Shown: piece after piece, positions 6,379 to 38,900 of the stretch | How the letters are laid out: each line of letters opens with the position of its first letter | How positions within the stretch are numbered: the first letter of the stretch is position 1 | Source: an uncultured archaeon | GTDB lineage: Archaea; Thermoproteota; Bathyarchaeia; Bathyarchaeales; Bathycorpusculaceae | Assembly: GCA_963782915.1 (NCBI GenBank) | Contig: CAWALK010000020.1 | Coordinates: 160,001-224,000 of the forward strand | Length of the DNA stretch: 64,000 bases | Reading direction: 5' to 3' | Translations under genes and position numbers: made by a program | Notes under the pieces: generated by a model | Told to the model about the DNA's origin: nothing | Databases searched by the model: none | What the model saw: the letters and a program-made list of their open reading frames with translations, nothing else

Positions 6379-6411
6379 TTTTTCTTTAATTGGAGTTAAG
6401 GAGGGCAAGAA

Positions 6412-19023: not shown

Positions 19024-19535
19024 TGGAAGCAGGAAAAACCAAAGTTATATCCGTCCTAGTCGAAAACAAACCCGGTGTCCTACACATGATCGCCAACCTG
19101 TTCAGGCGCCGAAACTTTAACATCGAATCTATCACCGTCGGACCCACCGAACAAAAAGACATCGCACGCATGACCATAACAGTCAACGAAGACGAAAAAA
19201 CCGTAGACCAAGTCATAAAGCAAGTCGCCAAACAAATCGATGTCCTAAAAGTCGGCGAATTAGAACGAGGCAACTTTGTCATGCGCGAACTAGCGCTGGT
19301 AAAAGTCGCAGTTAAGGACTCAAAAGAACGCAGCGACATCATTAACTTCGTCGAAGTCTTCCGCGGTAGAATAATCGATGTCTCCACTGACAGTATAACA
19401 GTTGAAATCACAGGTGGCCCCGATAAAATCGATGCTTTCATGAACCTAATGAAAACCTTCGGTATTATCGAACTTGCAAGAACCGGCATAACAGCCTTAG
19501 CCCGAGGAGCAAAATCAATAAGAATCGACCAATAA
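19023..19535 (+). CDS. ilvN: Acetolactate synthase small subunit
   Basis: VENKPGVL, RRNFNIESI, ARTG. Confidence 0.95.
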   Translation: MEAGKTKVISVLVENKPGVLHMIANLFRRRNFNIESITVGPTEQKDIARMTITVNEDEKTVDQVIKQVAKQIDVLKVGELERGNFVMRELALVKVAVKDSKERSDIINFVEVFRGRIIDVSTDSITVEITGGPDKIDAFMNLMKTFGIIELARTGITALARGAKSIRIDQ

Positions 19536-19632
19536 ACGGCTCGGACATAGCGGAAATACTTAATTGCCTCTTCTTTAGAATTTTGCCCTAATCATAGGTC
19601 TAACTGGATTAATAACAGGAAAAGATGCAACA

Positions 19633-20902
19633 ATGAACATTACCGAAAAAATCTTGGCTAAAGCATCCGGCAAAAAAGCCGTGCATCCAGGCGAAATCGT
19701 CGACGCAAACGTCGACATGGTCATGATACATGACTTAACTGGACCTTTAGCAGTTGAAGCCTTCAAAAAAATAGGCACCCCCAAAGTATGGGATAACAAA
19801 AAAGTAGTGGTAATTCTGGACCATCAGGTTCCAGCAGAATCAGTTAAGGCAGCGGAGCTTCATAAAACCATGAGGCAATTCGCTAAAGACCAAAACCTCC
19901 AAATCTACGATGTAGGCAGAGGCGGCATCTGTCACCAAGTCATGCCCGACAAAGGCCATGTAGTTCCGGGAGCAGTCATCGTTGGCGCAGACAGCCACAC
20001 CTGTACATATGGCGCATTCGGCGCATTCGCCACCGGCATCGGCTCAACAGAAGCAGCCGCAGTTATGGCAACCGGCAAAATCTGGTTCAAAATCCCAGAA
20101 GCTATCAAAATAACTGTTACAGGCAAATTCAAACCATACGTTACACCCAAAGACTTAGTCTTAGCCACAACCGGCCAATTGGGCGTAGACGGTGCAATCT
20201 ACAAAAGCTTAGAATTCACTGGCCCAACCATAAAAGAAATGACGGTTTCAGGCCGCATGACCCTGTGCAATATGGCAGTGGAAATGGGCGCCAAAAACGG
20301 TATAGTCGAACCCGACGAAACCACCAGCAAATACTTAGAGGGCAAAATCAAAAAAATGCCCAACCTAGACGCACTAAAAAGCGACTCAGACGCAGCAATA
20401 CAGCCAAACAGTAGAAATCGACGTCTCCAACATGGAACCCCAAGTCGCTTGTCCCTCATCAGTTGACAACGTTAAACCAGTCAGCAAAGTCGGCAACGTC
20501 AAAATCGACCAAGCCTTCATCGGATCCTGCACCAACGGCAGATTAGAAGACCTGCAGTTAGCTGCAAAAATCATGAAAGGCAAAAAAGTCGCCGACGGCG
20601 TTCGCGCATTAGTAATTCCTGCCTCTCAGGAAATCTATCAGCAAGCCGATAAAGAGGGTTTGCTGCAGATTTTCACGGAAGCAGGCGCAATCGTCTGCGG
20701 TTCAGCTTGCGGACCCTGCTTAGGAGGCCACATCGGCTTATTAGCAGCAGGCGAAACCTGTATCTCAACATCAAACCGCAACTTTATCGGCAGAATGGGC
20801 AGCACCCAAGCCAACGTCTACTTAGCGTCTCCTGCAACTGTTGCAGCATCTGCCATCGCAGGAAAAATCGTTGACCCAACAAAACAGGAGCGAAAAGCAT
20901 GA
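19633..20902 (+). CDS. leuC: 3-isopropylmalate dehydratase large subunit (frameshift ~20400)
   Basis: GADSHTCT, IGSCTNGR, CGPCLG, STSNRNF. Confidence 0.93.
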
Positions 20903-21400
20903 CCATAATCAAAGCTAAAGCAATCAAATTCGGCAACAACATCGACACAGACGTCATCTTACCAGGCAAATACCTAGTTCTGGTCGATCCCTGCGAATTA
21001 GGCAAACACGCACTGGAAAGCTTAGACACTAAATTCGTTGACAAAGCCAAAGCAGGCATAATCATAATCGGCGGCAAAAACTTTGGATGCGGCTCAAGCA
21101 GAGAACAAGCCCCCTTAGCATTGAAGTATGCAGGCGTAAAATGTGTCTTGGCAGAATCGTTTGCCCGCATATTCTACCGCAACAGCATAAACATCGGTTT
21201 ACCCGTCATCGAATGCAAAGGCATCTCCACAGCCGTAAACGAGGGCGACGAAGTCTCAGTCGATTTAGAAGCAGGCAAAATCCAAAACTTAACCAACAAA
21301 CAAACCTTGCAGGGAACCAAAATTGCCCCCATCTATCATGGAAGTCCTGGCAGATGGCGGATTAATTGAGAACTTACGTAAGAGGCTGAACAAAAAGTGA
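20899..21400 (+). CDS. leuD: 3-isopropylmalate dehydratase small subunit (frameshift near the 3' end)
   Basis: NIDTDVI, NFGCGSSREQA, ESFARIFYRN; the alternative frame gives ...DGGLIENLRKRLNKK*. Confidence 0.93.
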
Positions 21401-22428
21401 CTGAATACAAAATATCCCTAATGCCCGGCGACGGCATCGGTCCAGAATTAACAGAAGCAACCCTGAAAGTACTAGATGTGGTTCAGAAGAAATTCGGCAT
21501 AAAACTTGTTATGGTCACAGCTGACGCCGGCGATGCAGTATTTAAGAAGCAGGGTAAAGCCTTGCCAGAGGATAGTCTGCAGAAAATCAGGGACTCCCAA
21601 GCTTGCCTGAAAGGGCCGGTCGGAGAAACCGCCGCTGACGTCATAGTTAAACTACGCCAACTATTCGACTTATACGCAAACATTCGCCCGCTTAAGGCGT
21701 TTCCCAATGTGCCCGTTGCTTCCCCTAACATAGACATGGTTTTTGTCCGCGAAAACACCGAAGACGTCTACAAGGGATTAGAATTCACCATAGGCAACGA
21801 CACCACATTATGCTTACGAGTTATTACCCGCAAAAACTGTGAACGCATAGCCAAAAAAGCGTTCGAAACAGCACGCCTACGCAACGGCAAAAAGAAAGTC
21901 ACAGCTATCCATAAAGCAAACGTTATGCGCGTAACCGACGGCATGTTCAAAGCAATCTGCGCTGAAACCGCAAAACAATACCCCGACATAGCATACAACG
22001 AAATGTACGTTGACTCAGCCTCAATGCACTTAATTCGCAAACCAGACGACTTCGACGTCTTATGCACCTGTAACATGTTCGGCGACATCTTCTCCGACGA
22101 AGCAGCCCAACTAATCGGCGGCTTAGGCATGGCTCCAGGCGCAAACATAGGCGACAACTTCGCATTATTCGAACCCATCCACGGCTGCGCACCAGACATA
22201 GCAGGCAAACACATCGCAAACCCCCTATCCATGATACTCTCAGCCAAAATGATGCTCGAGTGGCTAGGCGAAAAATACAACGATTCTAAATGCTTAAAGG
22301 CAGCCGCCGCAATAGAAAAAGCAGCAGTAAAAACCTTAGCCAGTGGCGTAACCGTTCCGGATTTAGGAGGCAAAGCCACAACGATGCAAATGGCTGAAGC
22401 TATTGCTGCAGCGCTAACAGCAGCTTAA
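21397..22428 (+). CDS. leuB: 3-isopropylmalate dehydrogenase
   Basis: PGDGIGPE, RENTE, NMFGDIFSD, EPIHGCAPDIAG; leu operon context. Confidence 0.9.
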   Translation: MTEYKISLMPGDGIGPELTEATLKVLDVVQKKFGIKLVMVTADAGDAVFKKQGKALPEDSLQKIRDSQACLKGPVGETAADVIVKLRQLFDLYANIRPLKAFPNVPVASPNIDMVFVRENTEDVYKGLEFTIGNDTTLCLRVITRKNCERIAKKAFETARLRNGKKKVTAIHKANVMRVTDGMFKAICAETAKQYPDIAYNEMYVDSASMHLIRKPDDFDVLCTCNMFGDIFSDEAAQLIGGLGMAPGANIGDNFALFEPIHGCAPDIAGKHIANPLSMILSAKMMLEWLGEKYNDSKCLKAAAAIEKAAVKTLASGVTVPDLGGKATTMQMAEAIAAALTAA

Positions 22429-22432
22429 GCTT

Positions 22433-23965
22433 GTGAAAACAATGACAACTCCAAACCCCCGATTTATCAAAATCTTAGATACAACCCTAAGAGATGGGGA
22501 ACAAACCCCCGGTGTTTCTTTAACAGCTGAAGACAAAATTGAGATTGCTCTCCAACTAAACAAATTAGGCGTTGATGTTATCGAGGCTGGGTTTCCAAGC
22601 AGCTCTGAGGGCGAACGTAAGGTTGTTAAAGAAATCGCCAAGTTAGGTTTAACTTCAGAAATCTGCGGTTTATCCCGATGCACAAGAAAGGATATTGATG
22701 CAGCACTCGAGTGCGACGTAGATTTAGTTCATGTTTTCATTCCGACTTCTCCAGTGCAGATGAAGCATGCTGTTAACATGACTCCCGAACAGGTACTGTC
22801 CGCCGCAGTGGACTCAATTGAGTACGTCAAGAAACATGGGGTAAAATGCGAATTCTCACCCATGGATGCAACACGCACCGAAAAGCCGTTCTTGCGGCAA
22901 ATCTGCTTAGCGGCTCAAGATGCAGGCATGGACAGCTTAAACACACCCGACACAGTCGGCTGCATGATACCCAGAACCACTTTTGAATTCTTCAAGGAGC
23001 TAAAAAGCTACATCAAGGTTCCGATCAGCGCTCACTGCCACAACGACTTCGGCTTAGCAGTCGCCAACAGTCTCGCAGCAGTCGAAGCAGGCGCAGACCA
23101 AGTCCACACAGCAGTCAACGGCTTAGGAGAACGGGCAGGCAACGCAGCCCTCGAAGAAGTAGTCACCACCCTGCATGTGGTTTACGGTTACAAGACAAAT
23201 ATTAACACACGCTTACTCTACAGCACAAGCCGTTTGGTCTCTTCATTAAGCGGCGTTTCAGTGCAAGTTAACAAAGCCATAGTCGGCGAGAACGCGTTTG
23301 CACACGAATCAGGCATACACACCCGAGGCGTAACAGAACAACCATTAACCTTCGAACCAATCAGCCCCGAATTAGTCGGGCGCACAAGAAAACTGGTTGC
23401 AGGCAAACTGGCAGGCACCCGAGGCATCCAAGCTGAACTCAGCGAAATAGGCATCCACCCAACAGACATCCAATTATCAGAAATCGTGAAGCGCGTCAAA
23501 GAACTCGGCGACAAAGGCAAAATGGTAACCGACGCAGACCTAATCGCTTTAACCTCAGCAGTCATGGGCGAAGTGATCGGGGAAGAAAAAATCGTTGACC
23601 TCTGCGACATGGCAGTCATCACAGGTATCAAAGTCATCCCAACCGCCTCAGTCCGCTTAATGCTCGACGGCAAAGAATACGTAGCCGCAGAAACAGGCGT
23701 CGGACCAGTCGATGCAGCCCTAAAAGCCATCCAGAAATTAACCAGCAACTTGGAGAAAATCCGCTTAAGCGAATACCGCCTCGAAGCCATCACAGGCGGC
23801 TCCAATGCCGTTGCAGAAGTAGTCATAAAAGTCGAAGACGAAAAAGGCAACATCATCTCAGCACGTGCAGCCAGAGAAGACATCGTCATGGCATCCGTTG
23901 AAGCAATGATAAACGGCATAAACAAGTGCCTCATAAAAAACCGTAGCCAAGGCAAGAAACAATGA
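22433..23965 (+). CDS. leuA: 2-isopropylmalate synthase
   Basis: [27 protein letters not shown], regulatory domain GPVDA; operon context. Confidence 0.88.
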
Positions 23966-24774
23966 AAGTAACTTATCAGGGCGAAACTGGTGCATACAGC
24001 GAAATGGCTGTCTACAAATTCTTTGGCAGCAAAGCTGAGCCTGTGCCCTGTAAGGACTTCCGAGACGTCTTCGAATCAGTTAAAACAGGTGCTGTCCCAG
24101 ACGGGGTGGTTCCGATTGAGAACTCGATTGAGGGCAGCGTCAACCAAAACTACGACCTCTTTTTAGCGTACGACCTTAAAGTCTGCGGTGAAGTCGCAGT
24201 AAAACTTGCCCATGTCCTAATCGCTAACCCACAAACAAAATTCGAAGACATCGAAACCGTCTATTCCCATCCCCAAGCATTAGGGCAATGCCGCAGCTAC
24301 CTTGAGCGGCACAAATGGGAAATCATCCCCGCCTACGACACCGCAGGAAGCGTCAAAATAATCAAAGAAAAACAACTCTTCAACGCAGCCGCCATAGCAA
24401 GCGAAAAAGCCGCCGACCTCTACGACATGAAAATCCTCGCCCGAGACATCGCCGACAACCCAACAAACTACACCCGCTTCCTCGTCCTCGCACACGAAGA
24501 CGCAGCCCCCACAGGCGACGACAAAACCTCCATCATATTCTCAGCCAAACACGCCCCAGGAACCCTCTACCATGCACTCGGCGAATTCGCCTCACGCAAC
24601 ATCAACTTAACAAGAATCGAATCCAGACCAACCAAAACCACTGCATGGCAATACAACTTCTACCTCGACTTTGAGGGGCACCGAACAGAGAAACGATGCG
24701 CAGAAGCACTGCAGGCACTGGAGAAATACGCTGTATTCGTAAAGATTCTGGGAAGCTACCCCAGAGTCATCTGA
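23962..24774 (+). CDS. pheA: Prephenate dehydratase
   Basis: PIENSIEGSV, SHPQALGQC, NYTRF, IESRP (ACT domain). Confidence 0.95.
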   Translation: MKVTYQGETGAYSEMAVYKFFGSKAEPVPCKDFRDVFESVKTGAVPDGVVPIENSIEGSVNQNYDLFLAYDLKVCGEVAVKLAHVLIANPQTKFEDIETVYSHPQALGQCRSYLERHKWEIIPAYDTAGSVKIIKEKQLFNAAAIASEKAADLYDMKILARDIADNPTNYTRFLVLAHEDAAPTGDDKTSIIFSAKHAPGTLYHALGEFASRNINLTRIESRPTKTTAWQYNFYLDFEGHRTEKRCAEALQALEKYAVFVKILGSYPRVI

Positions 24775-26842: not shown

Positions 26843-27719
26843 TTATTTTTCCGTTGATTCCAGCATTTTGTACATTGTTTCGTAGCTTTCGCCGTAGTCA
26901 CCATCGACTTTGGCAAGTTTAGCTCGTAAGCGGTCCATGCGTGCCATTATGGCTTGGGAATCCTTCTTTTTCATCAACTCAACCCATTCTTCAGCGTTGG
27001 CGATGAATTGTTCCTCCATTTTTTCTAAGCCTGGAACTTTGGTTTGAACGTTGGCGTAGAGGTCGGGGGTTTCCTGCGCAACCGCTTCCGCAAGGGTGAG
27101 TAGCATGCGGTATGTTGTGCCTGCTAACTTTTTGGATTCTGGGAAGGCTGGTTGTTCAAGCAGGGTTTCGCAGGTGACTAACCCGATGAAATGTGATAAT
27201 CCCAAAATAATTGACATGAGCTCGTCATGTTTCTGTGGAGTCATGACAAAGACGTGGGCTTCTTCTTTTTCGAGCCACGCCTTAAACTCCTGTGCGTAAG
27301 CTTCCTCTTCGGGGTTAGTAGGTGTTAGCACGTAGGCTTTGTGTGCTACGCCGTTGCTGCCTGGCCCAAACACTGGATGCGTACCCAACACCAAGCGCAT
27401 CTTTGAGGTATTGATGCATAACGTTAACTGGAAACTCTTTGATAGAACAAACATCCATGACTGCTTGCCCCTGATGGATGGCAGGGGCTATTTTTTTGAC
27501 GGTTTCCTCAAAAGAGGATATTGATACGCAGATTAAGACGCGGTCAGCGCCTTTAACTGCGGTTGGGAAATCAGCTGTTTCTACGCCCAACTCTTTGCCT
27601 AATTTTGAGAGTTTTTCTGCGTTCCTGTCCGCGAGAACCACGGTGTCTCCTTTGGCTTTACACCATTTGGTGTACCAGACACCCATTTTTCCCGCGCCAA
27701 GAACGGCTGTCCTCATCAA
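26843..27719 (-). CDS. tyrA: Prephenate dehydrogenase (frameshift ~27400)
   Basis: GAGKMG, DVCSIK, THPVFGP, HDELMSIILGLSH. Confidence 0.92.
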
Positions 27720-28794
27720 GTGGCCTCGCAGATTTTCTCTAGTGCAGCTTCGATTTGGTCGTCTGGTGCGGTTAAGCTGATGCGGAAGTGTTCTGGGTAG
27801 TCTCCGAAGCTTGTGCCTGGTGCGACTGCTACGCCTCTGTCGAGTAGGTCGAGGGTGAATTTTACGCCGTCTAAGCCTTCGCGTTTGGGGAACACGTAGA
27901 AGGGTGCGTCTGGCTTGGTGAATTTGAAGCCTGCAGCCGAGAGTTTTGTGGATGCGAGGTCTGCGCGTGCTTTGTATTTGGCTTTGATGTTGGCTGCGAT
28001 TTGTGCGTGGAGTTCCATGCCTTTGAGTGCTGCGTCTTGGATGAAGACTGGGACGTTGTTGAAGGTGATTTGGTTGAGTTTGGTTACGTTGTCTATGTAT
28101 GTTTTGTTGGCGACTATGTACCCGATGCGCCAGCCTGTCATAGTGAAGGTCTTCGAGAAGCCGTTGCTAGAGGATATGTTTAGCTGTCGGCTCCGTAGTC
28201 TAGGATGCTTTTGGTTTTGTTGAAGGCGATTGCTCCATAGACTTCGTCGGAGAGGATCGTTATGCCCTTTTTGTTAGCTAACTCAACTACTTCGTCGAGG
28301 GTTTTGCTGTCCATGACTTTGCTGGTTGGGTTGTTAGGGTTGTTGAGTATGATCATTTTTGTTTCGCTGTCAATTAACTCCTCAAGTTTGGAAACATCGA
28401 CTTTCCAGCCTGTTTCCATTTCTGTGCGGAGTAGCTTGGTTTTTGCGCCAAAGCTCTTAGCGATTAAATCGTAAGCTGTCCAGTAAGGCGTTGGGATGAT
28501 GACGTTGCCGCCGTTCTTGAGCATCAAGAACATAGTAACAAATATAGCCCATTTGGAGCCGGGGGTGATGACAACGTTTTCTGCTTTTACGCCATGGGAT
28601 TCAGCGATTTTTTGTCGCAGACGCAACTCGCCATAGGAGGATGAGTATTTGGTTTTACCCGCCTTCATCGAAGCATAAGCTGCTTCCACGATTTCAGGTG
28701 GAGTAGCCATGTCTGGGTCGCCGAGGTTTAATCGGATGATTTTTTTTCCTTCACTTTCCAGTTTAAGTGCTTTCTCGTTTATTTCATAGAGCAT
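27716..28794 (-). CDS. Class I PLP aminotransferase, probably aromatic/aspartate (frameshift ~28170)
   Basis: NNPNNPT, SDEVY, FSKTFTMTGWRIGY. Confidence 0.9.
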
Positions 28795-28820
28795 AGATCC
28801 GACTCTCCGTTAAGAGTTCT

Positions 28821-29081
28821 CTATTCCTGAACGGCACTGCACATATTAACTATTTCGCGGTAAAGGCGTTCAATTTGGTCTGGGTCTAGCTTGAGCAGTT
28901 CCGCTCTTTCTCTGGCACGTTTGAATACTGCGATTTCTCTTGAGAGGTCCTGGACGGGTTTGCCCTGCTGCTTCTTGAGTTCGCCGATGGCTCGGCATAC
29001 TTTTACTCGCTGGACTATGTCTCTTAGGATTTGGTCGTCGATTGCGTCGACTTTTTCACGTAGCGCTGCTAATTCGCTCAT
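28821..29081 (-). CDS. Chorismate mutase (AroQ type)
   Basis: LREKVDAID...QR...IGELK...D.SRE. Confidence 0.9.
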   Translation of the reverse strand: MSELAALREKVDAIDDQILRDIVQRVKVCRAIGELKKQQGKPVQDLSREIAVFKRARERAELLKLDPDQIERLYREIVNMCSAVQE

Positions 29082-29085
29082 ATGT

Positions 29086-30191
29086 TTAGTGCTCCTTGAG
29101 GGTTTTTGGGATTTCACCTACACGTATAAGGTGATCCGCTAAGTGTGATTGCGACTGCTGCTTCGATTGCTGGCACCGCTTTGGGAACTACACAGGGATC
29201 ATGACGTCCTTTAACGCTGATAGAGGCATTCTCCATCGATGACATGTTGATGGTCTGCTGCTCTTTGGCAGATTGAGGGCGTCGGTTTGATTGCAACTCG
29301 GATAACTATGGGCATGCCTGAGGATAAGCCGCCTAAGATGCCGCCTGCATTCTCCGTTGCCGTAACCACTTTGCCGCCTTTAATTAGGAAGGCGTCATTG
29401 TTTTCTGAGCCGCGGAATTCTGCAGCTTTGAAGCCAGCCCCAAACTCGATGCCTTTAACCGCTGGAACTGCGAACAGTGCCTTAGCTAAATCTCCGTCTA
29501 ATGTGTCAAAGAGAGGTTCCCCAACACCTGCAGGCATGTTGAGTGCTAAGCATTCGATAACTCCGCCAAGGCTGTCGCCCGATTCTTTAGCGCTGATTAT
29601 GGCTGCCTCCATTTGTTCTGCACAGGCAAAATCTGGGCACCGAGTTGTGGTTGAGTAACGGTTCTTCTTGATTTCCGCTGGGCTGAACTTCTTGTCACTT
29701 TTAACTTGCCCAATTGCCGCAGTGTAAGCTAAAACATCAATGTTGTATCTGCCAAGGAGCTTCTTGGCGACTACACCCGCCATGATAAGCGCCACTGTGA
29801 CCCGTCCTGAGAAGCGTCCGCCGCCTCGATAATCGTTGAAGCCGCCGTATCGGATGCGGGCTGGATAATCGGAATGCGCTGGTCGGGGTAGGTCTTTGAT
29901 GGCGTCATAATCGCTTGATTTAGTTTCCTTATTCTCAACCATTAATGCGATGGGTGCGCCTGTGGTAAAACCGTTAAAGACTCCTGATAGAATTTTGGCG
30001 TGGTCCTTCTCGACTCTGGCTGAAACAATTTTGGGCTCCGCTGGAATCCTGCGGTCCAACTCTTCCTGAAAATCCTCTTCGCCAAGAGGCAACCCCGCTG
30101 GGCAACCGTCAACGACTACGCCAACGACTTTGCCATGGCTCTCCCCAAACGTTGTAACAGTGAATTCTTTACCTATCGAGTTTCCCGCCAA
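29086..30191 (-). CDS. aroC: Chorismate synthase (frameshifts near the 3' end)
   Basis: TFGESHG, RPAHSD, GGGRFSGR, KPTPSI, GRHDPCV. Confidence 0.95.
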
Positions 30192-31458
30192 CCACTTCAG
30201 CTCCTAGTTGCTTTATGTGAAGGTAGAACTGCGGATAAGACTTTCTGATGCACTCGGCATGCTCTATTGTGGTTTCTCCTTTTGCGCCGAGTGCGGCGAC
30301 GGCGGCTGCCATGGCGATTCTGTGGTCGTTATGGGGGTCGATGGTTGCGCCGTGGAGTGATGCGCCTTTGATGGTTAAGGCGTCGTCTGTTATTGTGATT
30401 TCTGCGCCCATTTTGCCGAGTTCCTGCTGGATTGATAGTAGCCTATCCGATTCTTTGAGCCTGAAACGTCTTGCACCTGTAATATGAGATGTGCCGTTTG
30501 CGTAACAGGCAAGAACCGCGATGGCTGGGACAAGGTCAGGAATATTTTTTACATCAACCTCTATGGGTTTTAGGGGTTTGCCTGTGCCTTCGATTTCGAC
30601 GCTGTCACGGCAGACTTTGCCTTCTACACCCATCCGTTTGAGAATGGTAAGAATCGCTTTGTCGCCCTGCACCGCTTCATAATCAAGATTGCTAACTGTG
30701 ACTTTGGAGTTGGTGATGGCTGCGGCTGCCAATAGGAATGCTGCTGAGGAGAAGTCGCCTGGGACATTGCTGTCGGTTGCCTTGTAGGCTTGGCTGGCTG
30801 GAACAATTATGCCCTTGTCTTCTAAGCCGACTACTACTGCATGATTGGAGAGGACCGCTTCAGTCATTTTGACGTAATCGGCTGATTCCAGCGGTGAAGT
30901 TAGGGTGATTTCTGTGTCTGCTTCAGCTAATGGGCAAGCAAACATTAGACCCGAAATGAACTGGGAACTCACATTGCCAGCGATAGAGCATTTGCCGCCG
31001 ACGATGCCGCCGCCTTCAACGAAAACAGCGTCTAAATCGCCCTGTTTTCCTACATGGGCGTCTGCGCCAAGCTGTTTGAGGCTCTCAAGCAGTGGCTCCA
31101 CGGGGCGACGCTCAATCGAACCCCTAAACGTAAGAATTGAAGGACCATCTGCCAATGCGGCTACGGGTATCATGAAGCGCAGGGTTGCGCCTGATTCACC
31201 GCAGTCAATGGGCTCCTTTGAGGCTTGGGGTTTTGCGCCTTTGATTGCCCAGCAGCCATCTTGTGCCTTGAATTGTGCGCCTAAAGCGGTGACTGCTCGA
31301 AGTGCAGCTTCGGTATCATCAGATAAAGGCGGATTGAAAATATGTGATGTGCCCTCGGAAAGCGCCGCTGCGATGACCATGCGTTGAGTATAAGATTTCG
31401 AAGGAGGCGCACAAACGCTGCCGCTTAGCTTCTCCGCTTTCTTTACAACTACATCCAT
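30169..31458 (-). CDS. aroA: EPSP synthase
   Basis: PPSKS, GESGATLRF, SSQFISG, RLKESDR, DHRIAM, KSYPQF. Confidence 0.96.
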   Translation of the reverse strand: MDVVVKKAEKLSGSVCAPPSKSYTQRMVIAAALSEGTSHIFNPPLSDDTEAALRAVTALGAQFKAQDGCWAIKGAKPQASKEPIDCGESGATLRFMIPVAALADGPSILTFRGSIERRPVEPLLESLKQLGADAHVGKQGDLDAVFVEGGGIVGGKCSIAGNVSSQFISGLMFACPLAEADTEITLTSPLESADYVKMTEAVLSNHAVVVGLEDKGIIVPASQAYKATDSNVPGDFSSAAFLLAAAAITNSKVTVSNLDYEAVQGDKAILTILKRMGVEGKVCRDSVEIEGTGKPLKPIEVDVKNIPDLVPAIAVLACYANGTSHITGARRFRLKESDRLLSIQQELGKMGAEITITDDALTIKGASLHGATIDPHNDHRIAMAAAVAALGAKGETTIEHAECIRKSYPQFYLHIKQLGAEVVGGKLDR

Positions 31459-31461
31459 CTG

Positions 31462-32331
31462 CTAAGCCACCTTGGCTTTCTCACTGTTAAGTTGTGCCAC
31501 CAAAACTTCGCCTTCATACTTCTGCAAGGCAGCTTTGACTTTATCAACATTATCTTTTGATGTTACTGCGGTTACGGCGGGTCCTTTGCCGCAGAGTCCA
31601 GCTGCAACTGCTCCAGCAGCTAAGGCATCGATTGCGATGGTTGTGTTCTGGTTGGATGCGGCAGAATAGACTAAGCCGTTTAGTGTTAGTGCTTCCCAAA
31701 TTTTGCCTTCCATAGCTTTCTCAAAGGCGATTTGGACAAGGGGTTTTACGGTTTTGAGCCTCTCCACATCTGAGTTTATAGTGTAGGCTTTCTGGGGTGG
31801 CACATGGAAAAGCACCACCAAATCCTTTGGAAGCGTTATCTGTTTGAGGATTTGGCGATTTAGGTTGTCGGTTATGACTGCTCCGCCAAAGTAGGATGCG
31901 CATGCATCATCGAAAGCGCCTGTGATTGTGCATTTGGCGTCAAAAGCCGCTTCTACGCCGATTTTTATTATTTCTAAATCGTCCAGTTTCTTGCCTAATG
32001 CTGTGACGGTGGCGAGTGCGGTTGCGTTTGCTGCTACGCTGCTGCTCTTTAAGCCTCGGGCAGCAGGGATGTTAGACGTAGTTTTAACTTTAGCGCCAAA
32101 TGTCTCTTCTAAATTAAACCGCTCAAGGACCCGTATGACAGTGCGTTCCATCAGAAGCGTGCTTTCTTTTGGGTCAGAGGTTATTTGTATTTCGAAAATG
32201 CCTGCTTCATCTGTAAGTTTGACTTCTGCTTTAGTCCATAAATCTACGCCGAAAGCTGCACCCTTACCTAATGCAATCGCATTTACGATTGTCGCTGCGC
32301 CATGCGCCACTGCCACCGCTTTACCCGCCAA
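31462..32331 (-). CDS. aroK: Archaeal (GHMP-type) shikimate kinase
   Basis: GAATIVNAIA, GLKSSS, ITGAFDDA. Confidence 0.93.
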   Translation of the reverse strand: MAGKAVAVAHGAATIVNAIALGKGAAFGVDLWTKAEVKLTDEAGIFEIQITSDPKESTLLMERTVIRVLERFNLEETFGAKVKTTSNIPAARGLKSSSVAANATALATVTALGKKLDDLEIIKIGVEAAFDAKCTITGAFDDACASYFGGAVITDNLNRQILKQITLPKDLVVLFHVPPQKAYTINSDVERLKTVKPLVQIAFEKAMEGKIWEALTLNGLVYSAASNQNTTIAIDALAAGAVAAGLCGKGPAVTAVTSKDNVDKVKAALQKYEGEVLVAQLNSEKAKVA

Positions 32332-32337
32332 ACCTAT

Positions 32338-33199
32338 CTACACCTTCTGCTGTAAATGAGTTAGCGCTGCCTTCCTCATAACTTCAACGGGTGCCGATTT
32401 GCCTGTCCAGATTTCAAAGGATGCTGCGCCCTGATAAATCAGCATCTCAACGCCGCTCACCACTTTGGCTCCGACGGTTTTGGCGTCTTTTGCCAATTTA
32501 GTTTCAAATGGATTGTAAACGATGTCCATGACTGAGAGGTTTCTTCGGAGCAATTCGGATCGGAACTGGGGTTTGGTCTGGGCGTGGTTTCATGCCCACT
32601 GAGGTGGCGTTGATTAGGACATCTGAATCTTGCAGGTTAGCATCAATATCTTCCAGCGAAAGTGAGCCTGCTACTATTCGTTTGTTAGCTGCTTTCTCCA
32701 CCAACCGTGCCAATGCCTGAGCATCCTTTACGGTACGGTTAAGCACTGCGAGTTCGTCAGCTTCCTTAGCCATCGCATAAGCAATCGCTCTGGCTGCTCC
32801 GCCTGCACCAAGCAACAGCACTTTTCTGCCTTTCAGTTCGACGCCGTTTTCTTTTAGCGCCTTTACTGCGCCTACGCCGTCAGTGTTGAAGCCAAACAGC
32901 AAGTTTTCTTTGTTTAGGACTGTGTTAACTGAATTGATGATTTGGGCTGATAAGTCAATGCGGTCTAAATTTGCCATCACCGTTTTTTTGTGGGGCATGG
33001 TTACGTTTAATCCGCGGATGTTTAGTGCCCGCATCCCATTTACTGCATCCACTACATAGGATGGTTTAACTTTGAACGCTAAAAACACGTAGTCCAAGTC
33101 GAGTGCTTGAAAGGCTGCATTATGCATAATCGGGCTTAGCGAATGCTCAATGGGGTCACCTATGACTCCGCACACTCGAGTTTTGCCCGAAATAGTCAT
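32338..33199 (-). CDS. aroE: Shikimate dehydrogenase (frameshift ~32550)
   Basis: HSLSPIMHN, NVTMPHK, NTDGVG, GAGGAA, DIVYNP, MLIYQG. Confidence 0.95.
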
Positions 33200-33891
33200 T
33201 TATTGCCCTATCCCCAGTAGTTTGTATGCAGTCTTCATTTCTTTTATACTCATCTGTCCCGATGCCGTCTGGTTGCTTTCGTCGAGTGAGGCGAAGGTGA
33301 AGTATGCGCCAAATGCTGGGGAGAGTAACCTTGAGGTTTTGCCTTGCTTCGCCCATGCAGAAGCAGACAAGCTTTGCTTTAGTGGAGGCGAACTGAAACA
33401 AAGCTCAACACTGGGAGGTTGTCTTCGATTTGTTTTGCGGTTAAGACGATTTTGCAGATGTCTGCTCCGCATGCGATTTCGTTCATCGAGGATTTTTTCC
33501 ATGGAGGATGACGTGTTAGGATTCCGTCGAATTTGTGGTAGGAAACGACGGTTTTTGTGCCAAGTTGCTTTAGTTTGCTGAGGGTTTCGCTGCGTTTTGG
33601 GCTGGAAAAATCTACATCGACAAACGCAAAACCGCTTTTAGCAGCGTTCAACAAGGTTTGCTGCCTCTCAGCTTCAGAACCAGTAAAATGCCCTTTCTCA
33701 CTTTGCAACTTGTTCGTTGCAATTAGCGGGATTTTTGTGCTCTTAGGCAGATCCGCTAAATTCCTTGTTTCTTCAAGGCAATCCATGCTGACCTCAACAA
33801 AATCTGCTTGAGCCTTCTCGGCTTTCTCTATTAGGTTTAAGGCTTCGGCTATGTTTTTAGGCATAATAGAGACGCAAATTTTTGCGCTCAC
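33200..33891 (-). CDS. aroD: Type I 3-dehydroquinate dehydratase (frameshifts)
   Basis: ICVSI, VSYH, GADICKIV, SRLLSP, SGQM. Confidence 0.88.
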
Positions 33892-34909
33892 TTCTCAATC
33901 ACCGTTTCATCTGGCACAGAGATGCCAAAGTGTCTGCCTCCACGAGCCGCCAAGTGCACCATGACTTCGTCGCCTGGTTTTAGGTCGGTGACGGGTTTGG
34001 ATGCTTTTGGGGTGACGACTCGGATGGTTTCGGCGTTCTGCAGGATGGTTTTAATGGTTTTTCCCTCTACCTGTGCTTCTACTAAGATGAGTGGGCGGAT
34101 TTCGATTTTTATGCGTGCCAACGTTTGCTTTGCGGGTTTTGCCCTCGCGGTTAACGAGTATGACTTCGTCGCCTGCTTTGAATTCTTGGAGGTAACGTGT
34201 CGTTTGCAGATTGCCCAACGTGTACATGGAGCAGGAGCCGGCGTTTACGCGGAAAGGTCGTGATGCTACATAGGGGTTTTCGTTAACTTCCGCTTCCACC
34301 AAGAACAAGCCTGCGCTTTGGCTGCCGACCAGCATGCCTTCGCCTGGCTGCATCAAGTCACAGGTGTCAACGCAGACGCGTGCGCCGGTGCTGATGGGTT
34401 TGGTGGCTAAGATTTTGGCTGGTACCATCTCAAGTTTTAAGTGCGTCGGGTTTTACGATGGCTACGGTTTTTAGGATTTCATCCGCGTCGGAAGTTTTTA
34501 GCAAGACGCCATCGGTTCCTAATTCAAGGGTTTCCAACGCTACTTTTGCTTCTTCGGCGTTGGTGACTTCTGCGATTAGTTTGCTTTTGCCCTTTATTCG
34601 GGCGATGAGGTTCTCCAGTGGAATAACTCGCCAGTTTGCTGTGCTGACTAAGTATGTGTGTTGCGCCTTGTTCGGCAGCTTTAACGATTAGGTTTTCGCT
34701 TGCTTTGTCACTGATGCAAATCCGCAGAACTTTCTGCTGCTTTATTCTTTTTCGAGGGCAGCCTCATTGCTTGGAGAGACTACGTTGATGGTTTGTTTGT
34801 TAGCTAGAAATTCTGCTTTATCATCTTCGATGACTACATCGACATATTGATTGATAAGCGCCTCTATAGAGCTCTTTTTTTGGGTTGTTTCTAGCCAGAG
34901 TTCCTTCAA
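33888..34909 (-). CDS. 3-dehydroquinate synthase II (AroB'), several frameshifts
   Basis: MKELW start, WRVIPLENLIA, RVCVDTC, GEGMLVG, RPFRVNAG, KIEIRPL, LQNAETI, GRHFG. Confidence 0.9.
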
Positions 34910-35698
34910 GCCTTGACACCCAATAGCTTTTCTGCTTGCTCAACCGACGCATTTTCATGCACAATTGCTGAAAGCGCCTTGGCAATTGCGGTTGGGTTGT
35001 CGCATTGGAACACATTGCGCCCAATGGATAAGTCCTGCTGCGCCTGCTTTGAGTGCATCAAAAGTGGTTTGCAGCACTTCCTGTGGCGATTTGCATTTGG
35101 GTCCACCCGCAATAACGACTGGGGCTGGGCAACTTTCAGTGACCATTTTGAAGGTGTCTATGTTGCCTGTGTAGTTGGTTTTGATGATGTCTGCGCCCAG
35201 TTCAGCGCCGATGCGGGCTGCGTGGGCGACTACTTCGACGGCGTGTTCGTTTTGGATTTTGGGTCCTCGTGGGTACATCATGGCGAGAAGTGGCAATCCG
35301 AAGGCATCGCATTCTTCCGCAACCTTGCCAAGGTTTGCCAGCATTTTGTCTTCGTCTTGTGCGCCAACGTTGACATGAACGGAGACTGCGTCTGCGCCTA
35401 TGCGGAGTGCTTCTTGTACGCTGCATACTTGGACTTTGGCGTTGACGTTTGGGCTCAGGTTTGACATGCCTGAGAGCATCACAATTAAGCCTGCGCCGTC
35501 TACGTCGATGCGTCTGGCGATGCCTTTGTGGACTAGGATGGCGTCGACTTTGCCTTTGATTAGTTGGTTGGTGATGGTTTGCATGTTAGTTATGCCCTGT
35601 ATGGGTCCGACGGTGACTCCGTGGTCCATTGGGACAATGACTGTGCGGTTGTCTTTTTGGAAGACCTGTTTTAGTCTGCGGGTTTTGCCTTCGTTCAT
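34906..35698 (-). CDS. ADH synthase (AroA', class I aldolase); frameshift ~35030
   Basis: IVPMDHG, MMYPRG, AELGADIIKT, VVIAGGPK, SIGRNVFQ; adjacent to AroB'. Confidence 0.9.
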
Positions 35699-35708
35699 AG
35701 TTCCACTT

Positions 35709-36952
35709 CTAATGTGTTTTAAGCGCGTTTTTAATTAACTTTAGCGCCTTCTCTTTCTCGTTCCAATCTACAAAAAGCAGAATACTCGATGTAATTGTTA
35801 ATATGCCGCTGATGTTTATGCCGTTAACGCGCAGGTCCTCGCTGATTTTGCCGATGATGCCCTGAGTTTCCTCTAAGCCGACTCCGCTGGTTTTGAGGAA
35901 GACAAGGTCTTTTTTGACTGCCATGGCTATGGTTTCTTTGTTGTTGATGGTGATGTCGTGGATTTGGTTGAAGAGTTTGCTGATATTCTCGGTTTGTGGG
36001 ACGTAGACGATGATGGAGTTGGTATTCATGGACATGCCTATGAGGCAGGTGTTTTCTTTGACTTTTTGAACGATTTCAGTAATGACTTGTGGATTCTTTG
36101 ACATGCCTTCGCCAATGACAGTGATTTCTGCGACTGGGCCTTCGTTGGCGATTTCGGCATCGAGTTCGGTTGCTAAGCCATCGGTTATGATAGTGCCGTT
36201 TTTGCTTAGGTCGTCGAGTTTGTTGCTCACGACTTTAACGTCTATGTCTTTAGGTTTGTACTTAAGCGCTTTATGTGGATGAATTTAGCGCCTGAATCTG
36301 CCAAACCGACCAATGTGTTGACGTTGATTGTTGGGAGCAGTTTTGGTTGAGCGATGATTTTGGGGTCGCTGGACATGATGCCCTCGGCATCGGTGACCAA
36401 GACGATTTGGTCGGCGTTTATGCCTTGGCCCATGAGGAAGGCTGTGGTGTCGCTTCCGCCCCTGCCAAGGGTGGTGATTTTGCCGTCTTTGGTTTTGCCG
36501 ATGAAGCCTGCGATGACTGGGATGGTGCCTGCTTCAACCAGTGGGAGGATGTTTTCTTTGATGTTTTTCTCGCATTCCTTAACCAGTGGATTTGCGTTCT
36601 GGAAGTTCTCATCCGTAACTATAGGCCATTTGGCATCCATTGGGTCAAAGTAGCATGCGTCAACGCCATTGTTTCGAAGGGCGGCGGCGAAGAGGCGTAT
36701 GCTTGTTCGTTCCCCCATCGAGAGGATGTCGTCTAATTCATGTTTTGCAAGTTTCCCATTCGAAGTGTTTTTTGCTGTGGCTAAAAGTTGGTCTGTGGTT
36801 TTACCCATAGCTGACACTACAACGGCGAGTTTAGTGCCTTTTTTGGATTCGTTAACGACTGCCATGACTGCTTTTAACATGCGTTCGTGATCAGCTAGGC
36901 TGGAACCGCCGAATTTAACCACAATTTTACGTTCAGAGAGTTGTCTTGTCAT
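35709..36952 (-). CDS. lysC: Second aspartate kinase heading the aromatic operon (frameshift ~36265)
   Basis: VVKFGGSSL, VVSAMG, SMGER, TTLGRGGSDTTA, two ACT-like C-terminal domains; GGGTG RBS at 36962-36966. Confidence 0.9.
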
Positions 36953-36974
36953 TTTATGTTGCACCCATTTCTTT

Positions 36975-37012
36975 GCCCAGAACCGTTCTCAAAAAATTTG
37001 TCAGTTCTGGGC
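36975..37012 (-). promoter_or_regulatory. Leader hairpin with U-tract loop between the leader ORF and the aromatic operon
   Basis: RNA GCCCAGAACUG-ACAAAUUUUUUGAGAA-CGGUUCUGGGC; 11-bp stem including one U-G pair. Confidence 0.7.
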
Positions 37013-37102
37013 TTAAGGAAAATAACTGTAATAATAAAAGCCGTAGTCGAAGCTGTGGAATTGTGCTGCGTTGAATTCGCTTTTGGCTTTAGCGTTGAGC
37101 AT
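37013..37102 (-). CDS. Putative Phe/Tyr-rich leader peptide (29 aa)
   Basis: MLNAKAKSEFNAAQFHSFDYGFYYYSYFP*, with 5 Phe and 5 Tyr; AGGT RBS-like motif upstream; lies between the promoter and the aro operon. Confidence 0.75.
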   Translation of the reverse strand: MLNAKAKSEFNAAQFHSFDYGFYYYSYFP

Positions 37103-37134
37103 AGCTTCGAACCTGTCCAATCACTCGCATCTTA

Positions 37135-37152
37135 GAAAATATAAGCGTTTCG
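37135..37152 (-). promoter_or_regulatory. BRE-TATA promoter of the leader/aromatic operon
   Basis: Minus strand CGAAACG-CTTATATTT, about 35-50 nt upstream of the leader ATG. Confidence 0.55.
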
Positions 37153-37169
37153 GATTAGAGCTTTTTAAC

Positions 37170-38900
37170 TTAAGCGATATCTTCAGGTTCTGCAGGCTCG
37201 ATGCATCTTCAGGCTTAGTCAACGGCGCCTGCGGTTTTTCTCTCTGCAAGCTCATTTAACCGCCTCCACAAGCGCCTTAGCTGTTTCTTTACGCACACCT
37301 GCAGAGTTATCGACCGCTTTGGTAGCAATGTCTTTTTCTAGCGTCTGCACCTTGCCCATTGCCGCTTGCTTCTTCTTCTCAAATTCAGCACGCAACTGCT
37401 CCATTTCATACGAGGAATTCTGTTCAGCTAACTGCAACCGTTTCTTTGCATCGAAGAATTTCTGTTCAGTTTCGAAGACTTGCTGCTGAATAGCGACTTT
37501 CTTGAGGGGGTTGCTTGTTTTGGTCATTTTTAATTTGGCGATTTCATTTGCCAAGTCATCGACGTTCTTGTTTAGCAAATCCATGGCGAACTTGCGTTTC
37601 TCTTCAAGCATTTTGGTTTGCGCTTCGAATTGTGATTCGATGTCGCCTGATTTGCCCGAATCCGTGGAGGATGTACCGACTGCCATTGCCAACCGTTTCT
37701 TAACAGAGTTTAATCTCTGGGTTAATTCGCTGACTTTCTGGTCCTGTGCCATCTTCTGCATGGGGTGCCGATAGCTGACTTTGACTGCTTGCGCCTCTGA
37801 CAGTTCTTTTTCGATGTTTGCCATGCTTCGCATGAAGGTTTCGATGGCGCTTGTGCCTTTCTCGACTAATTGTTTTGTTTGGGCAGCATGTTCCTCATCT
37901 ATTTTATTTAGCAAATAGCGGTTTTCTACCAGGGTTCTGTATGAGACTGCGATGTCTGCTTCGTTGGCTATTCTGTTGTCGAGTTCATCTTGGATTTGCC
38001 CAAAGATTTGGTTATATTGTGCGCTAAAGGTTTCGTCCGCGCCGATGGCTGTGTTGGATTCAAATGATAGGATGACTTGGCGGAGGTTTACCATCCAGTC
38101 GTCAAAGTATTTGCTCACTGGTTCCTGCTCGAAGACTTCGTCGCCTAACATGTCGAGGTAAGTTAAGGCTTCGGATGTGACTGATTCTATTTTGGCGTTT
38201 CTTTCCGCCAATAGCTCTATGGTTGGGTCTATCTGCGGTGGTTCCTCGACTTTGGGTGGCTCTTCTATGATTGGCTCTGGCTCTATTGGGGCTGGTTCTG
38301 GCTCAGGTATACTGATAGGTGGCTCAGCTGCGACTAGCGGGGATCGGGAGCGGTTCTGGCTCTATCACTGGCAACATGGGCTCTATTGCTGGAGGCATTG
38401 GAGCTGGAATCATTACGTGGGCTGTCTCGATAATTGGGGCTGTGTGCTTTGCGGAGTCTCTGGGCTGCAATCTCCAGCGTTAAAGCTTCAAACTTGGGCA
38501 CCAACTCATCAATAACTGCCATCATCAAATCGCGGTATTTGGCTTCGCTTAAATCAAGCAGTTCACGGCGCCCATCCACAAAAGTCAAAGCTAAATGCCC
38601 CGTGGGATGTATGAATGCTTTTTCGACTAATCCTAAATCGATGGGAATTATGGATGTGGAGACGGCAATGGAGGAAGTCCATGGCTCCATGTTGGATTTT
38701 AGGGATTTTAGAAAATGGGTGACGACAGAATTTTCTTGGTTGGTTAATTTGCTGATTTCTTGGATGTCTTCAGCGACGGTTTGGAATGTGCTGGCGATTT
38801 CTTCTATGCTAATCTGTTTCTTGCCAGGGTTGTTTAGGTGCTGCGCTGGGGTATGTGCTTGGTATTCTACGAATATGGTGTCTGCTGCATCTTGAGTCAT
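37170..38900 (-). CDS. Large coiled-coil hypothetical protein with Pro/Glu linker (frameshifted; probably one gene)
   Basis: ORFs 38334-38900 and 37252-38211 are joined by PEPEPAPIEPEP-type codons; helical C-half has an internal duplication. Confidence 0.6.

Follow-up and report, generated by a model that had tools for sequence, protein, structure and literature searches.

Can an archaeal operon be controlled by the progress of a ribosome through a short leader rich in the codons of the operon's own end products? Leader-peptide attenuation is the textbook proof that ribosome and RNA polymerase communicate in bacteria, and archaea also couple transcription and translation; to our knowledge, no archaeal gene is known to be regulated in this way. 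The question is raised by a locus of an uncultured archaeon of the family Bathycorpusculaceae (class Bathyarchaeia), located within a stretch of 64,000 nucleotides (nt) of contig CAWALK010000020.1 (assembly GCA_963782915.1, positions 160,001 to 224,000), hereafter the window. On the minus strand of the window, an operon for the biosynthesis of aromatic amino acids that begins with an aspartokinase-like gene (hereafter, the kinase) is preceded by a small open reading frame (ORF) rich in phenylalanine (Phe) and tyrosine (Tyr) codons, the leader ORF, which is followed directly by a strong hairpin. The conservation of this arrangement suggests, with a probability that we put at about three in four, that the ORF is a cis-acting translated leader, that is, an attenuator in which ribosome transit through the Phe/Tyr cluster would report the supply of charged tRNA and set the expression of the operon.

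A Phe/Tyr-rich leader ORF upstream of the aromatic operon

Five Phe and five Tyr codons account for 10 of the 29 codons of the leader ORF, and nine of the last 15 codons are Phe or Tyr, including the run FYYY; there is no tryptophan (Trp) codon (Table 1). These figures, on the minus strand from 37102 to 37013, agree with the initial annotation of the window, as does the location of the ORF between a box resembling a B recognition element (BRE) joined to a TATA element and the operon, with exactly 60 nt between the leader stop and the ATG of the first gene (36952) and the hairpin starting at the base that directly follows the stop codon. Such enrichment is rare: among the 22,449 ATG-initiated ORFs of 15-45 codons in the whole source genome (G000; 3.28 Mb, 45% G+C), three reach nine or more Phe/Tyr codons in a 15-codon window, the leader ORF among them. 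One of the other two is a TTT run upstream of an ORF of 128 amino acids (aa) and the other lies antisense inside a 300-aa ORF, neither with a link to the pathway. An independent assembly (L103), with a kinase 96% identical to that of the source genome, carries the same leader with a single glutamine-to-histidine substitution, which argues against an assembly artefact in the ORF.

The promoter box is nearly invariant in the genus alignment, with TATAT invariant across 50 sequences, and among the relatives a TATA-like box is conserved 25-45 nt 5' of the leader start, that is, upstream and not downstream of the ORF. This placement suggests that the leader ORF lies within the operon transcript. 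An archaeal TATA box is typically centred ~26 nt upstream of the transcription start site (TSS), and from this spacing the TSS would fall ~11 nt 5' of the leader ATG, with a predicted leader 5' untranslated region (UTR) of ~0-20 nt. The TATA-like box is separated by 22 bases from the segment GGTTCGAAGC, which ends one base before the leader ATG. Three soil metatranscriptome-labelled sequencing runs contained 0 reads over the locus, which is no test of expression. A search of the 601 bases from 36800 to 37400 against Rfam (cmscan, E up to 10) returned two chance matches to eukaryotic microRNA and long non-coding RNA families and no match to any amino acid leader family (Phe, Trp, His, Thr, Leu).

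Conservation of the aromatic tail across the phylum

Kinase orthologs of relatives, all of them from metagenome-assembled genomes, were identified by sequence search, and the DNA upstream of each kinase was inspected for a leader. In a first sample of 26 orthologous loci (24 from the genus and 3 from other families, minus the source locus), all 26 contain an ATG-initiated ORF of 24-41 codons that has an aromatic tail and stops 44-77 nt ahead of the kinase. For a test free of start codon calls, the best open frame with a stop 35-95 nt before the kinase start was taken, and Phe, Tyr and Trp were counted in its last 12 codons. Within the order, 94 of the 99 unique loci have at least six aromatic codons among the 12, and 97 have at least five; of the misses, L036 does possess a leader, the estimated kinase start having been off, and L077 has four aromatic residues. 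Among 2,591 control regions upstream of long ORFs in the source genome, at least six aromatic codons were found in 14 and at least seven in 2. Beyond the order, at least six are present in 15 of the 45 loci from other orders of the class (3 more reach five), with presence and absence distributed family-wise, and in 8 of the 20 loci from other classes of the phylum (4 more reach five). The loci are related, and all the counts therefore exceed the number of independent events.

The last 12 codons of the order set are 33% Tyr, 27% Phe and 1.8% Trp. The 735 aromatic codons comprise 279 TAT, 118 TAC, 185 TTT, 132 TTC and 21 TGG; thus, both synonymous codons are in use, the C-ending TTC and TAC making up 250 of the total. 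In 91 of the 99 loci, no more than one codon separates the last aromatic codon from the stop. The tails of different families differ in sequence yet stay aromatic, as in SFDYGFYYYSYFP, FYSFGYFFYN, YFSGYWAFGY, YFFTYLSGYYMTF, NPYYYYYYYCFF, FFDFFYYYFYFE and FYGFYFYFYFGP. Judged from these tails, the conserved property is aromaticity and not peptide sequence, and the retention of aromaticity through sequence change across ~17 families is our main argument. By the same comparison, the enrichment is not due to chance. The initial annotation had asked whether Phe/Tyr enrichment would persist despite nucleotide divergence or would turn out to reflect AT-richness. It persists in the 94 order loci through strong divergence of both nucleotide and peptide sequence, and AT-richness does not account for it, given the 14 of 2,591 controls at the same threshold and the share of C-ending codons. 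The absence of Trp codons, pointed out at the same time, is true of the source leader and does not extend to all of its orthologs, some of which contain Trp. As far as sequence can tell, the interpretation of the leader as a dual Phe/Tyr sensor is supported by these comparisons and greatly strengthened by conservation at the scale of the phylum.

Two public bins labelled Methanocella sp. (L094) and Candidatus Micrarchaeota (L111) carry a kinase locus of the Bathyarchaeia type together with a leader (88% and 50% identity, respectively); the labels are probably binning or labelling errors.

Selection on the reading frame

For the analyses that follow, leader-bearing loci were pooled into a set of 108, with 35 loci lacking a leader for comparison. 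An in-frame ATG is located 11-60 codons before the stop in 104 of the 108 loci, and a group within family f11 apparently uses a TTG start. The leaders are uniform in length, with a median of 26 codons (interquartile range 24-28). Variation by codon position was assessed in an alignment of 50 sequences from the genus and its large-genome sister genera. Over the N-terminal 14 codons, entropy is 1.45, 1.47 and 1.44 at codon positions 1, 2 and 3, respectively, and gaps come in threes. Equal variation at the three positions, combined with indels in threes, implies that the frame is kept open while the N-terminal amino acids are unselected. The peptide itself is probably not the product that matters.

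A hairpin in contact with the leader stop codon

The hairpin is tied to the leader both in position and in occurrence. The strongest hairpin between leader and kinase starts within -3 to +5 nt of the end of the stop codon in 106 of the 108 loci (median -17.4 kcal/mol), and the bases of the stop codon form part of the stem in 47. The 87 nt before the kinase start have a mean folding z of -2.75 in the 108 leader loci vs -0.29 in the 35 loci without a leader; at the source locus, the segment from leader stop to kinase start, which contains the hairpin, has z = -3.7. The nine outer pairs are 98.9% paired in the 50-sequence alignment, and in the small-genome f1 genera five pairs of the hairpin show changes on both sides, that is, compensatory ones. 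In family f7, alignment-wide RNAalifold recovered the hairpin alone.

Hairpin arms of the form GCCCAG...CTGGGC are found in families f1, f7 and f6, and the sequences in other families are quite different (GGAGAAGCC..., GGGGAAAGGG..., GCTTCGAAACC..., GGGGACCGG...). The GCCCAG/CTGGGC arms persist between families with kinase identities of only 62-67%, which is far more than a plain stem needs, and in f7 the CTGGGC motif recurs in the leader 5' UTR. A site for a protein or another factor in these arms is possible.

Helix 1 and the search for alternative pairings

A second helix, helix 1, is present in the genus and its sister genera, where the segment GGTTCGAAGC pairs with AGCTTCGA in the Ser-Phe-Asp/Gly/Glu codons. 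Each of the 7 core pairs is formed in 46-50 of the 50 sequences, the changes being mostly to G-U. An equivalent helix in the small-genome genera joins AATAGCCAC (codons 4-7) to GTGGCTATT (Ser-Gly-Tyr codons) in 7 of 7 cases. By eye, roughly half of the f7 sequences have an ATAGCC early in the ORF opposite a GGCTAT in the cluster; RNAalifold did not call the latter helix. The 5' segment GGTTCGAA resembles a tRNA T-arm; ARAGORN identified no tRNA-like element in 36500-37700.

An anti-terminator was sought by comparing the best duplex that the hairpin's 5' arm forms with RNA upstream of it to 200 shuffles. The duplexes are no better than those with shuffled arms in the genus (mean z = -0.49, 29 loci), f1big (-0.71, 15 loci) and f1small (-0.41, 7 loci). 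They are partly significant in f7 (mean z = -1.67, 19 loci; best -3.4) and in single f11 loci, and no conserved anti-terminator is detectable across these groups. When the 5' arm is masked, the remaining RNA shows no structure beyond chance over the 108 loci (mean z = -0.06), with neither a helix of the 3:4 type nor sequestration of the Shine-Dalgarno (SD) sequence. Pairing of the aromatic tail with the ribosome-binding site (RBS) of the kinase was not detected either (mean z = +0.33; 2.8% of the 108 loci below -2). With no alternative pairing found, the only robust switch is between the folded hairpin and a 5' arm held by a ribosome.

T-runs and termination signals

Of 1,439 operon-end ORFs in the source genome, 39.6% are followed by a T5+ run, compared with 9.0% for sites inside ORFs, and the 40 nt before the operon-end T-runs fold no better than controls. 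Because T-runs are enriched without an accompanying enrichment of hairpins, the terminators of this genome look like hairpin-less archaeal U-tracts. Between 27000 and 46000 in the window, there are 32 sites resembling intrinsic terminators, compared to 27.8 +/- 4.9 expected. In the excerpts available, aCPSF1 is described as binding the U-tracts of terminators (PMC8716108), and factor-dependent termination as thought to require uncoupling from the ribosome (PMC13681488).

At the leader loci, the T-run occupies different places. In the genus it lies inside the hairpin loop, with nothing T-rich 3' of the hairpin, and T4-7 in the loop is typical of g1 and f1big members; many other families have T3-6 after the hairpin, then GGGGG or GGAGG, and then the start codon. 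Among the 108 loci, T4+ directly follows the hairpin in 17, and T5+ lies inside it in 43. The idea that the hairpin hides the U-run was rejected, only 32% of the U's being paired.

The aromatic operon and other loci of the source genome

The coordinates of the leader region and of the operon are collected in Table 1.

Table 1. Features of the leader region and the downstream operon, in window coordinates
Feature	Position	Strand	Remarks
Leader ORF, 29 codons + TAA	37013..37102	minus	ATG 37102-37100, TAA 37015-37013; reads MLNAKAKSEFNAAQFHSFDYGFYYYSYFP
Aromatic codon cluster F-D-Y-G-F-Y-Y-Y-S-Y-F	37019..37051	minus	8/11 codons Phe/Tyr; ends one codon ahead of the stop
BRE/TATA-like promoter	37136..37153	minus	CCGAAACGC + TTATATTTT = CCGAAACGCTTATATTTT; TATA part 33 nt 5' of the leader ATG
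5' segment GGTTCGAAGC	37104..37113	minus	Predicted transcript 5' end; 5' strand of helix 1; nearly invariant
Ser-Phe-Asp codons AGCTTCGAC	37046..37054	minus	3' strand of helix 1
Hairpin, arms GCCCAGAACTG...CGGTTCTGGGC	36975..37012	minus	38 nt, 11 outer pairs, -17.4 kcal/mol
T6 run in the hairpin loop, after an A-run	36991..36996	minus	Candidate archaeal termination or pause signal
GGGTG, SD-like motif of the first operon gene	36962..36966	minus	9 nt 3' of the hairpin; putative role
First operon gene, aspartokinase-like, AA_kinase + ACT domains	35709..36952	minus	Pfam
Rest of the operon	26843..35698	minus	Pfam matches and ORF list; several frames broken

As the initial annotation had it, the operon makes chorismate, prephenate and Tyr, and its Pfam content bears this out. 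Downstream of the kinase, it encodes, in this order, a DeoC-type aldolase (aroA'), dehydroquinate synthase II, type I dehydroquinase (aroD), shikimate dehydrogenase (aroE), GHMP shikimate kinase and EPSP synthase, and its 3' part encodes chorismate synthase, chorismate mutase, a class I/II aminotransferase and prephenate dehydrogenase. The pathway matches the leader: the operon ends with chorismate mutase, the aminotransferase and prephenate dehydrogenase, and Tyr is the commonest leader residue. A paralogous kinase elsewhere (41-46% identity; L028-L030) has no leader in any of 3 loci. Genomes of the order that lack the kinase also lack an aroA' match in 4 of 5 cases. The archaeal aroA'/aroB' route uses aspartate semialdehyde, and the aspartokinase-like first gene fits this route. 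The (T)GGGTG motif ahead of the kinase is conserved within the genus.

Several frames of the operon are broken in the source assembly. The kinase frame is interrupted between 36242 and 36230, and further breaks affect dehydroquinate synthase II, aroD, the aminotransferase (28180/28141), prephenate dehydrogenase and, outside the operon, trpE (G000:C23 ~6000-7500). The kinase orthologs are single open frames of 411-432 aa, and the contig of a ~92% similar relative carries one extra G after 36272. Because the orthologs are intact and the relative has this additional base, most of the breaks are suggested to be assembly indel errors rather than signs of pseudogenes.

Directly upstream of the leader promoter lies a 319-aa ORF (37252-38211, minus strand) that matched no Pfam family at E up to 0.001 and by eye is rich in Glu, Lys and Gln and resembles a coiled coil. 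Convergent with the aromatic operon is an ilvB-ilvN-leuC-leuD-leuB-leuA operon (17307-24774, plus strand) that ends in the prephenate dehydratase gene pheA (23962-24774) and has an ordinary TATA-like box and no leader in its own upstream region. With pheA at the end of this operon, Phe synthesis is split from the Tyr branch and placed behind the branched-chain genes.

The prospect of cognate leaders at other amino acid operons, raised in the initial annotation, was not borne out at the three operons inspected. None precedes the trp, his or ilv-leu-pheA operon of the source genome: the regions upstream of trpE, hisG and ilvB contain no ORF rich in Trp, His or branched-chain codons, so that such leaders are not a general system of this genome. 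A scan of its 32,437 small ORFs for single-residue enrichment produced nothing convincing, and a scan of 2,277 small ORFs for a stop-adjacent hairpin gave 339 matches, with no other amino acid-rich case among the matches listed. Of the candidates considered, the Phe/Tyr-rich small ORFs at C1:127343-127429 and C1:179103-179228 are antisense to, or part of, larger ORFs, and an Arg-rich small ORF lies out of frame inside a Cys-rich frame that by eye looks ferredoxin-like. Two further loci outside the window are of separate interest. Directly upstream of trpE (G000:C23 ~6010-6030), there is a TGTACA-TTTA-TGTACA sequence, TGTACA being the TrpY operator (TrpY box) of Methanothermobacter, and the trp operon of the source genome may be under a repressor rather than a leader. 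A 20-codon ORF at G000:C24 81286-81348 (minus strand) contains six consecutive Cys codons (MKVSCCCCCCNCAPHNSCNY); it is followed by low-complexity C-rich DNA, with no biosynthetic gene directly downstream.

Proposed mechanism

In the scheme that we propose, the leader would be the first ORF on the operon transcript, and the quantity sensed would be the speed of a ribosome through the 8-13 Phe/Tyr (or Trp) codons at its 3' end. Since the hairpin and the stop codon are in contact, its 5' arm would be kept open by a ribosome on the last codons or on the stop, and a ribosome further back, or none at all, would let the hairpin fold. With ample Phe and Tyr, the first ribosome would reach the stop and mask the 5' arm, and 30-40 nt of unstructured U/C-rich RNA, including a T-run, would trail the polymerase, open to termination of the U-tract or aCPSF1 (FttA) type. 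With Phe- or Tyr-tRNA scarce, the ribosome would stall in the cluster, the hairpin would fold once its 3' arm had emerged, and the polymerase would continue into the kinase gene. In the genus, helix 1 would close the leader start after the first ribosome had passed or once the cluster codons were free of ribosomes, which fits a decision taken once per transcript.

This scheme makes the hairpin the read-through conformer, placed like the 2:3 structure of the bacterial attenuators, an assignment that we offer tentatively, as the likeliest of the routes considered. It gives the correct sign of regulation for most codons of the cluster, and, needing no second structure, it fits the lack of folding in the RNA that remains when the 5' arm is masked; it also fits the hairpin-less terminators of the source genome. 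The broader version, namely an ancient ribosome-mediated attenuator that is widespread in the phylum of Bathyarchaeia and is read out through exposure of the nascent RNA to, or its concealment from, the U-tract or aCPSF1 (FttA) machinery rather than through a hairpin terminator, appears to us somewhat doubtful.

Several observations weigh against a leader that works in this manner. Aromatic codons occupy the first or second position before the stop in most of the order loci, where a stalled ribosome would mask the hairpin instead of letting it fold, and the hairpin can fold after ribosome release, which makes the outcome dependent on timing. A U-run of 5+ between leader and kinase is present in only 59 of the 108 loci, 48 of the 108 have a T-run neither inside the hairpin nor after it, and 104 of the 323 U's in those U-runs (32%) are paired in the minimum-energy fold. 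Against the attenuator in general stand the operons for Trp, His and the branched-chain amino acids, which have no cognate leader, and the 30 of 45 class loci from other orders that possess an orthologous kinase and no leader. Covariation in the genus and the family is mostly of the one-sided G-U kind, with changes on both sides in 7 of 845 cells; relatedness of the sequences inflates all the conservation counts; and the many frame breaks make single-base errors in the assembly possible. The TSS, translation of the leader, ribosome stalling and the regulatory effect are all deduced from DNA sequence.

Alternative explanations

The same sensor could also be wired in the opposite, bacterial-type sense, the hairpin, with the T-run where one is present, serving as a terminator that turns the operon off, and a stalled ribosome either blocking the 5' arm or freeing the 5' segment as an anti-terminator that permits read-through. 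The stop-proximal aromatic codons are within reach of the hairpin arm, as such wiring would have it, and many loci outside the genus (for example, L204, L205, L208 and L106) show a hairpin, then T3-6, then GGGGG or GGAGG. In f7, the CTGGGC of the 5' UTR is complementary to the GCCCAG arm, and the duplexes of that family are comparatively good; for most sequences of the genus, no other upstream stretch pairs with the arm better than the 5' segment. The off state in the absence of translation would also be provided for, as in E. coli trp. However, shuffled arms pair with the upstream RNA as well as the real arm does in the genus, f1big and f1small, the arm carries no changes that compensate for variants in the 5' segment, the genus has no T-run after the hairpin and only a small minority of all loci have one directly there, and the terminators of the source genome show no hairpin enrichment. 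In addition, regulation would have the wrong sign for stalls at the earlier codons of the cluster, which would not keep the hairpin from folding, and on balance we consider a hairpin terminator unlikely, if still worth keeping in view. The output could instead be translational, with the leader ribosome setting the state of the hairpin and thereby controlling ribosome access, or reinitiation, at the kinase start. The start site directly follows the 3' arm, the hairpin ending ~9-30 nt before the estimated start in most loci, with a G-rich SD-like motif next; T-runs are not universal; the 3' arm is pyrimidine-rich and anti-SD-like in several families; and mycobacterial leader ORFs are described as acting on translation in the excerpts available (10.1101/834739). 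These points meet the findings that the 3' arm and the RBS region, with the 5' arm masked, fold no better than shuffles, that pairing between the aromatic tail and the RBS region is absent, and that in the genus and f7 the CTGGGC of the 3' arm is not complementary to the SD sequence. Simple reinitiation coupling would have the wrong sign, and helix 1 would shut off the repeated translation of the leader that a steady-state switch needs, leaving a translational output distinctly improbable.

Two other explanations dispense with the sensor altogether. The C-terminal motif of the leader is well conserved within families, as would be the case if the product of the ORF were an aromatic micropeptide with a function of its own, for instance in a membrane or as a partner or ligand of the ACT-domain kinase. 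Between families, though, aromaticity alone is kept and not sequence, the amino acids of the N-terminal half show no sign of selection, and the contact of the stop codon with the hairpin in 106 of 108 loci, as well as the link between hairpin and leader, would be left unexplained, so that we give a micropeptide very little credence. The frame could also be incidental to a signal in DNA or RNA, such as a second TATA-like promoter arising from TTTTATTATTA, an operator or a structured RNA. Runs of Tyr and Phe codons do look like TATA boxes, and nucleotide-level conservation is seen in AGCTTCGA and GGTTCGAAGC, with the palindrome TTCGAA in them. Yet 104 of the 108 loci retain the start codon, the open frame, its length and the position of the stop, families richer in G+C (for example, L026 and L027) keep the aromatic tail by way of codons that are not TATA-like, and the region yielded no Rfam family apart from the two chance eukaryotic matches and no tRNA-like gene. 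A mere nucleotide signal is, in our view, barely credible.

Implications and comparison with known systems

The locus represents, at the scale of a phylum, a concrete candidate for leader-peptide control in Archaea, with parts that lend themselves to mutation: the start codon, the aromatic codons and the arms of the hairpin. If the attenuator reading is true, the leader would be the first known case of a natural regulatory device built on transcription-translation coupling in archaea. It would let one ask whether archaeal ribosomes gate termination and in which mode, intrinsic at U-tracts or dependent on FttA/aCPSF1, and whether attenuation is older than the split of the domains or arose twice. 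It would also provide a regulatory handle on the synthesis of aromatic amino acids in Bathyarchaeia, which are abundant in sediments and soils; the record titles and run labels (palsa, soil) fit such a habitat. Short sensory ORFs may, moreover, be going unnoticed in the annotation of archaeal genomes. No archaeal leader-peptide attenuator was found in the full-text searches made, subscription-only literature being outside their scope; upstream ORFs are said in passing, with citation of reviews, to regulate in archaea too in the part of one article that was available (PMC10219788).

Compared with the bacterial attenuators, such as E. coli pheL-pheA (PMC3082878), trpL, hisL and thrL, the archaeal leader is likewise a short first ORF on the predicted transcript of a biosynthetic operon, with codons for the end products near its 3' end, a non-conserved N-terminus and a strong RNA structure before the first gene, and several archaeal leaders end in Phe-Pro-stop. 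The differences begin with the host, which has a Pol II-like polymerase and no Rho. The archaeal locus has one hairpin after the stop instead of a pair of 2:3 and 3:4 structures, with no terminator alternative detectable; in the genus the T-run is inside the hairpin loop; the putative sensor mixes Tyr and Phe, with some Trp; and the operon under its putative control opens with an aspartokinase-like gene and follows the archaeal aroA'/aroB' route. The pheL/trpL architecture recognized in the initial annotation thus stands as to the short ORF of cognate codons and the hairpin and does not stand as a whole, with a single hairpin, the T-run in the loop in the genus and no conserved anti-terminator. 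The locus is not a strict member of the bacterial leader-peptide attenuator family, because the alternative anti-terminator was not detected and the hairpin with a U-run, as in a terminator, is seen in only part of the loci.

Other systems resemble it in single respects. The polycysteine leaderless small ORFs of mycobacteria, as far as the excerpts available describe them (10.1101/834739), are also sensory, rich in cognate codons, dependent on ribosome stalling and located at, or close to, the start of a polycistronic mRNA; the predicted archaeal 5' UTR of ~0-20 nt is similarly short. In the mycobacterial case, stalling of the ribosome prevents the duplex by which the RBS is masked, whereas the archaeal loci show neither pairing of the tail with the RBS nor a fold that masks it. 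The known control of an aromatic pathway in archaea is by TrpY, which represses the trp operon of Methanothermobacter; unlike the candidate leader, TrpY acts by protein-DNA repression at the promoter, without ribosome sensing. In the logic proposed above, the closest likeness is to the Rho-dependent leaders of the tnaC and mgtL type, in which the position of the ribosome decides the access of a termination factor to naked nascent RNA, the putative factor here being aCPSF1/FttA and not Rho. What would be new is the domain of life: the leader described here is a candidate, in Archaea, for a sensor of the leader-peptide type, a kind so far established only in bacteria.

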